Assembly (NCBI GenBank): GCA_037305845.1
Contig: CP147778.1
Location: 1,088,001 to 1,152,000 of the forward strand
DNA from: Candidatus Freyarchaeum deiterrae
GTDB taxonomy: Archaea; Asgardarchaeota; Jordiarchaeia; Jordiarchaeales; Jordiarchaeaceae
DNA: 64,000 bases
Reading direction: 5' to 3'
Under the pieces are notes generated by a model. The model saw only the letters and a program-made list of their open reading frames with translations, did no database searches and was not told the DNA's origin. Positions 37,487 through 40,221 of the stretch are shown one piece after another. Within the stretch, counting starts at the first letter, position 1. Each line of letters begins with the position of its first letter. The position numbers and the translations under genes are program-made.

Positions 37487-37834
37487 ATGGCTAAACAGGC
37501 AAAAAAGAAAAACAAGGAAGAAACTGTACCAGAAGAGAATATGGTTTTTATTGGAAAAAAACCGACAAAGTAGATTCACGTTAGTGTTCTACGTCGAATG
37601 AGTTACGTTCTGGCTTGCGTTATTCAGTTTAATCAGGGTGCGAAAGAAGTAAGAGTTGTGGCGCGTGGAAGGGCGATTTCCAAGGCTGTTGATGTTGCGG
37701 AGATCGTACGCCAGCGTTTCTTGCCTGAGGGTGTAAAATTGGGTAAGATTACTATGGGCACCGAGATTATGGGAGCTAGTGCTGACGAAAAACGTAATGT
37801 TTCCACTATTGATATTCAACTCCTAAAAGCTTAA
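37487..37834 (+). CDS. albA: Alba chromatin/RNA-binding protein, split by an intron: join(37487..37568,37599..37834), 105 aa
   Basis: GGAGGT RBS then ATG at 37487. The spliced product reads ...[17 protein letters not shown]...[15 protein letters not shown]...RNVSTIDI. Confidence 0.9.
37569..37598 (+). other. Putative 30-nt BHB/BHL mRNA intron in alba
   Basis: CGAC/GTCG 4-bp helix, AAA and AAT bulges, inner stem GTAGA/TCTAC, in-frame TAG at 37571-37573. Confidence 0.85.
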
Positions 37835-38025: not shown

Positions 38026-38388
38026 TTGCCAAATATTGAGTATGAAAAAACAGGTAAGAAAACTAGTATACATAGTGACTCAATTCCAATAGAAACGAAG
38101 ACTCTCGAGGATGTTAGGTGCGGAAACTGCGGATTGCCTCTCCTTATCCATGTTTTTTGGAGAGGTGAGAAGTACGAGCGCATAGTTGAGTGTAAGAAAT
38201 GTGAGATAAGTTTCTCGCTGGAAGGAAATCATAAACCTATCGATACAAAAGCAAATCCTGTGGGTAGTAATGTAAATCCTATTGATGCTAAAACAAATCC
38301 TGCTAAAGAGGCCAAACCAAAACCAGCTAAGAAGAGTAACGATGACAAAAAGGAAAGTATGGTGGATCGGCTTGTTCGATCATGGTGA
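38026..38388 (+). CDS. Zinc-finger hypothetical protein with a low-complexity tail
   Basis: CGNC...CKKC followed by short NPxxxK-type repeats. Confidence 0.65.
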   Translation: MPNIEYEKTGKKTSIHSDSIPIETKTLEDVRCGNCGLPLLIHVFWRGEKYERIVECKKCEISFSLEGNHKPIDTKANPVGSNVNPIDAKTNPAKEAKPKPAKKSNDDKKESMVDRLVRSW

Positions 38389-38436: not shown

Positions 38437-39018
38437 ATGGTAGAAAAGGTCAGATTCGAGTGTGTTAAGTGTGGTAATTGTTGCAGGGATAAGAATTTCA
38501 TAATAACAATTACGGATAAGGATACTTTTCTACTGGCTAATCATTTAAAATGTGATCTTAAAGAACTTTTATCGAAGTATATTGGTTTTTATCAGGTTAG
38601 GAAAGAACTTGAAAACAGACTAGTTTTTCCAGCTATTTCAACATATAGAGGTAATGCTTTCCTGGGATTAAGAAAGAAGAGCGATGGTTCCTGTTTGTTT
38701 TTGAGGGATGATAATCTTTGCGGAATTTATGCAGCTAGACCTATGGTGTGCCGAAGTTTCCCTTTTACTTTTGAAGTTAAGGAGGGATGGCTTTCTTGGG
38801 GTCTAATGGCGAAAGCGGAGGAGATTTGCCCAGGATTGGGACAGGGTGAAATAGTCTCTGAGGAAAGTTTAGAAAAGATGGGGAGAGAAATAATTAGGAA
38901 CCTTAAGGAGTACAGAAAAGTAGTTTCAATTTGGAACCATCACGCAAAAGTTGAGCAGCTAGACCCGGCCTTACTGGTGAAGACATTTCTCGAAGAAGCA
39001 AATCTTACTCCTCAATAA
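38437..39018 (+). CDS. YkgJ family (CxxCxxCC) cysteine cluster protein
   Basis: FECVKCGNCC, CLFL, CGIYAARPMVCRSFPF and CPGLG. Confidence 0.9.
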   Translation: MVEKVRFECVKCGNCCRDKNFIITITDKDTFLLANHLKCDLKELLSKYIGFYQVRKELENRLVFPAISTYRGNAFLGLRKKSDGSCLFLRDDNLCGIYAARPMVCRSFPFTFEVKEGWLSWGLMAKAEEICPGLGQGEIVSEESLEKMGREIIRNLKEYRKVVSIWNHHAKVEQLDPALLVKTFLEEANLTPQ

Positions 39019-39263
39019 ACTTAACAAAATATTTTTGCCAGTTAGAGAAGACTAAAATTTTGGGATAAGCGTTAATTTTGCATCAAGTTAAAAGAACTGT
39101 TAAAAAAATTAGATAATTTTAGCTCATTACCTAGGGCGAGATTGATATTAAAAATTAAATTTTGAGGCTTAAATCTATTTTTTTAGAGTTGAGGATAATA
39201 TTTAATAGCATAATTAACCATAATAAATTGGCTCTTCTTGAATTGTTGGGGAGTGAGTCAATA

Positions 39264-39767
39264 TTGAAATTAGAGGAAGCGGCTCGGAAGGCTATAGACC
39301 TTTTAAGAGAAGCAGGCGAAAGTGGAATATATAATATCGAACTTGCGCAAAAACTAAAAGTTCCAAAACGGCGCGTTTATGACATAGTGAATCCTCTTAA
39401 ACCCTTGGGGCTAGTCGAAATAAAAAAGGAAAGGGGAAAAACAAAAATCTGCTGGGCGGGGAAAACCGAGGCGGTACTTAAACCAGAAAAAGAGAAGATT
39501 CAAGAAAAAGAAAAAAATCTCGTAAAAATTGAAACCGTAAAGCTGGTAGAAGATAATCCGCTCATTGAATCAGTTACAGGAGATCAGGGAGAAGAAGGTT
39601 TTAAATTCAATTGTGCGGCGTTAAGAATAAGTTGCGGCAACGCGTTAAAAGCTTGTAGAGTGTATCACGATGGATTCGAGGTAGTTGTTGAAACTGATGG
39701 AGGGAACTTGTTAGTGAAGCCTAACTCCCTGAAACCGAAGACTCCAAAAGTAAAATCAGTATTTTAA
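39264..39767 (+). CDS. E2F/DP-like winged-helix DNA-binding protein (ORF open from 39162; likely start TTG 39264)
   Basis: LAQKLKVPKRRVYDIVNPL..LGLV...ICWAG matches the E2F/DP RRxYD signature. Confidence 0.75.
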   Translation: MKLEEAARKAIDLLREAGESGIYNIELAQKLKVPKRRVYDIVNPLKPLGLVEIKKERGKTKICWAGKTEAVLKPEKEKIQEKEKNLVKIETVKLVEDNPLIESVTGDQGEEGFKFNCAALRISCGNALKACRVYHDGFEVVVETDGGNLLVKPNSLKPKTPKVKSVF

Positions 39768-39843: not shown

Positions 39844-40221
39844 TTAAACAAGTTCCATTTTTATTCTGCTGCCTCTCTTTACTTTTTCAAATATTTCTAG
39901 ATTGCTAGTGATTTTCCCCACAATGTTTACTTGGGAATAAGGCTCAACTTCTTCAAAAAAGATGCACAATGAATCACCTTGACTCCAATAAGCTAAGGCG
40001 CCCTTCTCAACTTTTTTTGTGGGTTTCTCTAATCCCTTCTTTATACTCACAGGAAAATAAATTTCCTTTCCTTTCCAGATGTTTACTACACTAGAAATTG
40101 GAAGAGCATCTCGGAGCGCCTCTACTGTTCGAGAAGCATAAATTCTGTTTAGCTCACCCTCAGCTTCGCCTACTCTCTCGACAATAAATTTTACCCTAAA
40201 CCTTGACAAACTCTCAGACAT
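39844..40221 (-). CDS. Cyclophilin-like fold protein (DUF369/TM1367 type)
   Basis: LPISS..NIW..EIYF, GALAYW....LCIFF and VNIVGKI. Confidence 0.85.
   Translation of the reverse strand: MSESLSRFRVKFIVERVGEAEGELNRIYASRTVEALRDALPISSVVNIWKGKEIYFPVSIKKGLEKPTKKVEKGALAYWSQGDSLCIFFEEVEPYSQVNIVGKITSNLEIFEKVKRGSRIKMELV

Follow-up and report, generated by a model that had tools for sequence, protein, structure and literature searches.

The window analysed here is a 64,000-nucleotide stretch of the Asgard archaeon Candidatus Freyarchaeum deiterrae, covering positions 1,088,001–1,152,000 of a genome that is closed as a single 3.58-Mb contig (CP147778.1). It contains an E2F/DP-like gene whose product has an N-terminal winged helix-turn-helix (wHTH) DNA-binding domain (DBD), a linker and a small beta domain (Table 1). 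Sequence comparisons show the N-terminal 68 residues to be a wHTH of the E2F/DP type in which the RRxYD base-contact motif is preserved. The gene is followed by a convergent cyclophilin-like gene. Its product is very probably the single E2F/DP-family wHTH protein of this archaeon, orthologous to members of arCOG02749, and is predicted to be a sequence-specific, self-pairing regulator tied to the cyclophilin-like protein.

The translated frame contains the exact stretch, LAQKLKVPKRRVYDIVNPLKPLGLVEIKK ... ICWAG, that was quoted in a preliminary description of the locus. Homologues are 165–167 residues long and begin with MKLEE, and across the genus (five genomes) the E2F-like gene uses TTG or GTG as its start codon. 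The start at 39264 is favoured by these lengths and N-termini and by the conserved Shine-Dalgarno-like element and TATA-like block, and a longer open reading frame (ORF) opening at 39162 is probably not used. The conserved upstream block GGATAATATTTAATA is a putative promoter. No conserved G/C-rich operator was found in the upstream alignment of the five genomes, in which the TATA-like block and the ribosome-binding site alone are conserved.

Table 1. Features of the E2F/DP-like locus, with coordinates given as positions in the window
Feature	Coordinates	Strand	Description
E2F/DP-like gene	39264–39767	+	167 aa; TTG start, TAA stop; identified by translation and Pfam PF02319
Winged-helix DNA-binding domain	39264–39467	+	Residues 1–68; three helices and a beta wing ending at W64
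RRVYD, E2F/DP base-contact motif	39369–39383	+	R36 R37 V38 Y39 D40, in the recognition helix; aligned to E2F4/E2F8/DP2
Lys/Glu-rich linker	39468–39593	+	Residues 69–110; in place of the coiled coil of most other Asgard members; not predicted helical
Small beta domain	39594–39743	+	Residues 111–160; strands FKF, ALRISC, CRVYH, EVVVE, LLVKPN; no Pfam family
Shine-Dalgarno-like element GGGGAGTGA (GGGGAGTG)	39248–39256	+	8 nt 5′ of the TTG; unchanged across five congeneric genomes
TATA/BRE-like block GGATAATATTTAATA...	39193–39220	+	About 45–70 nt before the start; invariant run in five aligned upstream regions
Cyclophilin-like gene (PF04126)	39844–40221	-	125 aa; convergent with the E2F-like gene, 76-nt spacer; Pfam 88.9 bits
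CxxCxxCC gene (PF03692)	38437–39018	+	YkgJ-type, putative Zn/Fe-binding; directly upstream; Pfam 49.8 bits
Zinc-ribbon-like ORF	38026–38388	+	120 aa; CxxC...CxxC core, Lys/Pro-rich tail; no Pfam family
Alba gene	37598–37834	+	Two genes upstream

DNA-binding domain and family placement

The Pfam model E2F_TDP (PF02319) matched the protein with 38.1 bits (E 1.2e-9; profile positions 7–65 of 65), above its gathering cut-off of 25.7 bits. A six-frame search of the whole 3.58-Mb genome returned this gene as the sole match (39.6 bits). Protein Data Bank (PDB) matches obtained with the single sequence using phmmer were E2F8 (1.2e-5) and E2F4 (6.3e-5), and the only solved structures matched by a profile built from 43 Asgard homologues were E2F8 at 9.4e-14, E2F4 at 2.2e-8 and DP2 at 3e-3. 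All 43 aligned homologues match E2F_TDP, and residues G21, R36, R37, Y39, D40 and W64 are invariant among them. A chance resemblance would not account for these results. The motif RRVYD aligns with RRIYD of E2F4 and E2F8 and with RRVYD of DP2. Three helices and a two-strand wing, as in the winged-helix fold, are present, and the DBD of E2F4 is 39% identical to the archaeal protein with a root mean square deviation of 1.6 Å.

Maximum-likelihood phylogeny of 72 DBD columns, which resolves poorly within groups, set TrmB sequences apart with 100% support in the Shimodaira-Hasegawa-like approximate likelihood ratio test (SH-aLRT). E2Fs of eukaryotes, typical and atypical, group together with 99% support on a long branch that has no Asgard members; outside this clade, the Asgard sequences fall into an unresolved grade. 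The tree was built without DP and is hence mute on the Asgard clade as sister to E2F, DP or both.

The preliminary description had read an E2F/DP DNA-binding signature and a eukaryotic-signature transcription factor from the letters alone, and had named a better placement with TrmB or other prokaryotic wHTH families as the outcome that would speak against it. Profile comparisons gave no such placement, and the E2F_TDP match, the invariant RRxYD of the 43 homologues, the PDB matches and the tree all support the reading.

An ordinary prokaryotic wHTH regulator of the TrmB type would owe its likeness to E2F/DP to the RVYD-type recognition helix that is common in the HTH clan. The TrmB family (PF01978), which comprises archaeal sugar-responsive wHTH regulators, does belong to the same clan and shares an xRVYD recognition helix and a wing with the E2F-like protein. 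However, the E2F-like protein lacks the TrmB C-terminal domain, and its TrmB match is borderline, at 25.6 bits over the 34 residues 26–59. E2F_TDP outscores TrmB in 43 of 43 members, the family profile found no TrmB structure in PDB at E ≤ 10, and NCBIfam TrmB equivalogs score 12–20 bits on the protein against cut-offs of 500–600. The genuine TrmB genes of the same genome score 80–89 bits on the TrmB model, and none of them matches the E2F model. With TrmB also set apart in the tree, this explanation is largely refuted and is considered very unlikely.

Outside the window, TrmB-type wHTH matches lie inside very long frames of the same genome. One is at 335300–335500 on the forward strand (39.7 bits, 1180-aa frame) and another at 1177073–1177270 on the reverse strand (32.3 bits, 1312-aa frame). 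These lengths are unusual for TrmB-domain proteins.

Contamination with eukaryotic DNA, or recent acquisition of the gene from a eukaryote, would fit a domain that is essentially eukaryotic outside Asgard archaea; it was found in none of 14 control genomes, and Eme et al. (2023) agree. Against this stand the position of the gene on a single closed archaeal contig, its archaeal neighbours such as Alba, its archaeal-type ribosome-binding site and the synteny kept among Asgard genomes. The protein is 64–85% identical to Jordarchaeia proteins and about 35–45% identical to eukaryotic DBDs, and the eukaryotic E2Fs keep to their separate clade in the tree. A eukaryotic source for the gene is thus barely credible.

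One library match, to a 1424-aa RTX/HCBP protein (E 2.9e-8), was rejected as a chance match. A single 62-residue repeat of that protein was matched eight times, with a pairwise E of about 0.001.

Among the 400 Asgard genomes surveyed, 136 carry PF02319 above the cut-off, usually in a single copy. At E ≤ 0.001, 40 of 85 Asgard genera have a match. The family has named relatives in Hel-, Loki-, Odin-, Thor-, Baldr-, Ran- and Jordarchaeia, and at NCBI relatives go under the name "E2F family transcription factor". Whether this family had been described was left open in the preliminary description. It is already in print: Asgard E2F/DP homologues (arCOG02749) are described by Eme et al. (2023, Nature 618:992, PMC10307638) in Supplement 4.1.5 and the eukaryotic signature protein (ESP) table, and Asgard E2F is also mentioned in a review (PMC7617429). 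In Eme et al., the archaeal proteins are stated to be without a dimerisation domain.

Two entries in the ESP table are close orthologues. Jordarchaeia_GBS06_19740 corresponds to sequence P0017 and is 64–65% identical over all 167 residues; Jordarchaeia_QZMA23B3_12990 corresponds to the ORF sequence of locus L010 and is about 66% identical. Orthology to the catalogued Asgard E2F/DP members extends over the full length (64–67% identity over 100% of length). The published homologues are of the same protein family with the same full-length architecture and no essential difference, and the present gene is one more orthologue from another genome. The conserved beta-rich tail and the conserved cyclophilin-like neighbour go beyond the literature. 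Neither the neighbour nor the coiled coil with its beta domain is mentioned in the consulted portions of the Eme et al. text.

Linker and C-terminal beta domain

AlphaFold2 run with the 43-sequence alignment gave a predicted local distance difference test score (pLDDT) of 73–82 for residues 111–160 and five to six strands within residues 102–154 (112–114, 119–124, 131–135, 140–144 and 149–154). A shallow alignment had left the tail unmodelled. A model from the Atlas, representing a Thorarchaeota-dominated archaeal cluster, matched residues 100–160 with a TM-score of 0.60. The pattern K-x-F ... L-x-I/V-R ... V ... G-x-E-V-I/V-x-E ... G-x-x-V-x-P runs through the domain across Asgard lineages, and G137 and E143 are kept in at least 90% of the 43 members. 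The beta-rich C-terminal domain proposed in the preliminary description is therefore both predicted by modelling and conserved.

The segment between the wHTH and the beta domain differs between lineages. In the alignment, members of the Thor-, Loki-, Hel-, Odin- and Baldr-type lineages have a heptad-like segment of 40–50 residues at this place, and weak matches to coiled-coil families (including YabA, DivIC, HALZ, ZapB and bZIP) were found in 6 to 11 of the 43 members. In the Jord/Frey clade, to which the present protein belongs, the middle segment is shorter, contains proline and is not predicted helical. Residues 68–110 of the present protein have a pLDDT below 50.

The order of wHTH, coiled coil (in most members) and beta domain mirrors the DBD, coiled coil and marked box of E2F/DP. 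Eukaryotic E2F1–6 (PF02319 with PF16421; E2F4–DP2–DNA structure 1CF7) have the same RRxYD wHTH, and their order of DBD, coiled coil and five-strand beta module is matched by most Asgard members. The eukaryotic proteins are 300–600 aa long, in contrast to 167 aa here, and the archaeal protein has no transactivation or pocket-protein-binding tail. Its coiled coil is degenerate, as in the rest of this clade. Unlike the E2F/DP heterodimer, it has no DP paralogue: one PF02319 gene is present in this complete genome, as in most Asgard genomes. The atypical E2F7/E2F8/DEL proteins (4YO2) include the best PDB sequence match, E2F8, and like the archaeal protein do not need DP. They carry two tandem DBDs, whereas the Asgard E2F-like protein has one DBD per chain, so that two DBDs would have to come from a homodimer and not from one polypeptide.

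Direct comparisons of the tail with the eukaryotic coiled coil–marked box (CC-MB) module gave graded results. PF16421 (CC-MB) and PF08781 (DP) did not match the E2F-like protein in Pfam at E ≤ 10; at that threshold, neither was in the top 25 families by frequency for the 43 members. In hhalign against 81 eukaryotic CC-MB sequences, the Asgard region after the DBD reached a probability of 48% and an E of 1.8e-4, with the alignment confined to the coiled coil; the score was 28.1, and a reversed-profile null gave 16.6. No significant hhalign match was obtained between the beta domain and the eukaryotic marked box, whether 8 or 81 sequences were used and whether the mode was local, global or low-mact (P 0.25–0.74). 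A greedy hhalign alignment of the beta domain was collinear with the marked box strand for strand, and the beta domain alone gave P of about 0.3. When Atlas feature searches were restricted to the C-terminal part, both for this protein and for a distant homologue, E2F_CC-MB and DP clusters came out at the top (0.75–0.77); these values are at the level of a lead and may include leakage of DBD context. Whole-model fold searches were swamped by wHTH matches and barely covered residues past 76.

Homology of the tail to the E2F marked box is thus possible but unproven from these alignments. A bolder proposal holds that the part after the DBD is the ancestral CC-MB module, that the DBD-CC-MB core was a pre-eukaryotic homodimer with the cyclophilin-like protein as an ancient partner or regulator, and that the coiled coil decayed in the Jord/Frey clade, where a set of Cys/His residues may contribute pairing that depends on metal or redox state. 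It contradicts the statement, in Eme et al., that the archaeal proteins have no dimerisation domain. This proposal is tentative and, taken as a whole, rather unlikely.

Residues C116, C124, C131 and H135 are near-invariant in the 16 proteins of the Jord/Frey clade, whereas the remaining Asgard lineages do not conserve them. The model puts C124 and C131 on either side of one hairpin loop, with C116 and H135 at the other end of the hairpin. Speculatively, these four residues could make up a metal or redox site particular to this clade, which might sit at a dimer interface.

Gene neighbourhood

Loci were compared by tblastn and ORF clustering. At 24 of the 30 Asgard loci compared, a PF04126 gene adjoins the E2F-like gene with gaps of 7–140 nt, and these 24 loci span the GTDB families f1, f3, f6, f9, f17 and f31. 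In f9, both genes run in the same direction and overlap. Genome-survey coordinates place second E2F copies in genomes G006 (f6), G297 and G299 (both f26) near a PF04126 gene as well, which makes f26 the seventh family. The closest solved structure to the cyclophilin-like protein is TM1367.

The PF03692 gene is a weaker second neighbour. It is adjacent in f1, f6 and f15, with the order reversed in f15. The remaining flanking genes vary between GTDB families. The zinc-ribbon-like ORF of Table 1 is conserved within the genus only, with 41–47% identity across four loci. Alba genes also occur near the E2F-like gene in f9 (loci L022 and L023).

Predicted function and significance

The E2F-like protein would be a regulator that binds DNA sequence-specifically, with a recognition helix that reads a G/C-containing core as E2F and DP do. 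It may form a homodimer held by the C-terminal beta domain, with the coiled coil assisting in most other Asgard lineages. Homodimerisation is suggested by the single gene copy, the lack of a DP-like paralogue and the use of two DBDs in known complexes (E2F4–DP2, 1cf7; E2F8, 4yo2). The conserved gene neighbourhood suggests that the protein works with, or is controlled by, the adjacent cyclophilin-like protein.

Several observations weigh against a self-pairing, sequence-specific regulator tied to its neighbour. Genome-wide counts showed no enrichment of TTTSSCGC, CGCGCG or GCGCGC in the intergenic DNA of this genome, and SGCGCS and related words were likewise unenriched. De novo enrichment of intergenic 8- and 10-mers returned no E2F-like word. 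TTTSSCGC, GCGCG and CGCGC were not found within 350 nt upstream of the genes for class II ribonucleotide reductase (RNR), two NrdD proteins, MCM, the E2F-like protein or the cyclophilin-like protein; ThyX is absent from this genome. Foldseek and VIA-align searches with both models gave generic wHTH matches only and were uninformative in discriminating E2F. The linker is not predicted helical, so dimerisation would be less supported here than in the relatives that bear a coiled coil. PF04126 is also more widespread than E2F (269 of 400 genomes, commonly including E2F-free families), and the link between the two genes is therefore one of adjacency and not of co-occurrence. The pair is convergent in most lineages, which excludes co-transcription there.

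Some of these results would suit a protein that binds DNA or other nucleic acid and is not a gene-specific transcription factor. It could be a wHTH protein associated with chromatin, replication origins or segregation, or one half of a complex with the cyclophilin-like protein in which the wHTH serves as a tether alone. The absence of a candidate regulon motif in this genome fits such a role, as do the single copy per genome of a widely conserved family, the non-regulatory appearance of the conserved partner gene and weak matches to the wHTH domains of Cdc6, RPA and TFIIE. The invariance of the base-contacting RRxYD argues for sequence-specific reading as in E2F/DP, and the non-regulatory alternative is considered improbable. 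Sequence-specific regulation by the E2F-like protein remains the preferred reading.

The most enriched intergenic 8-mers (for example TGAGGAAC, TTTGCAAG and CGTTACTG), with about 190–250 copies each, resemble overlapping fragments of a single repeat present about 200 times, which most likely represents large CRISPR arrays. Outside the window, at about 1509950–1510150 of the genome, a tRNA-like sequence ending in ...GTTCGAATCTCGCTCCCCGCACCA precedes the class II RNR gene by about 160–290 nt and has the same orientation.

E2F/DP drives transcription of the G1/S programme in eukaryotes, and its presence in Asgard archaea therefore bears on the origin of cell-cycle control. The conserved tail of the Asgard proteins occupies the place that the pairing module has in E2F/DP. 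If the two are homologous, a complete E2F/DP core would predate eukaryogenesis, and the split into E2F and DP would be a simple homodimer-to-heterodimer duplication. The cyclophilin-like gene kept beside the E2F-like gene across Asgard classes encodes the first candidate for a partner of an archaeal E2F, and the same adjacency provides a first functional context for PF04126.
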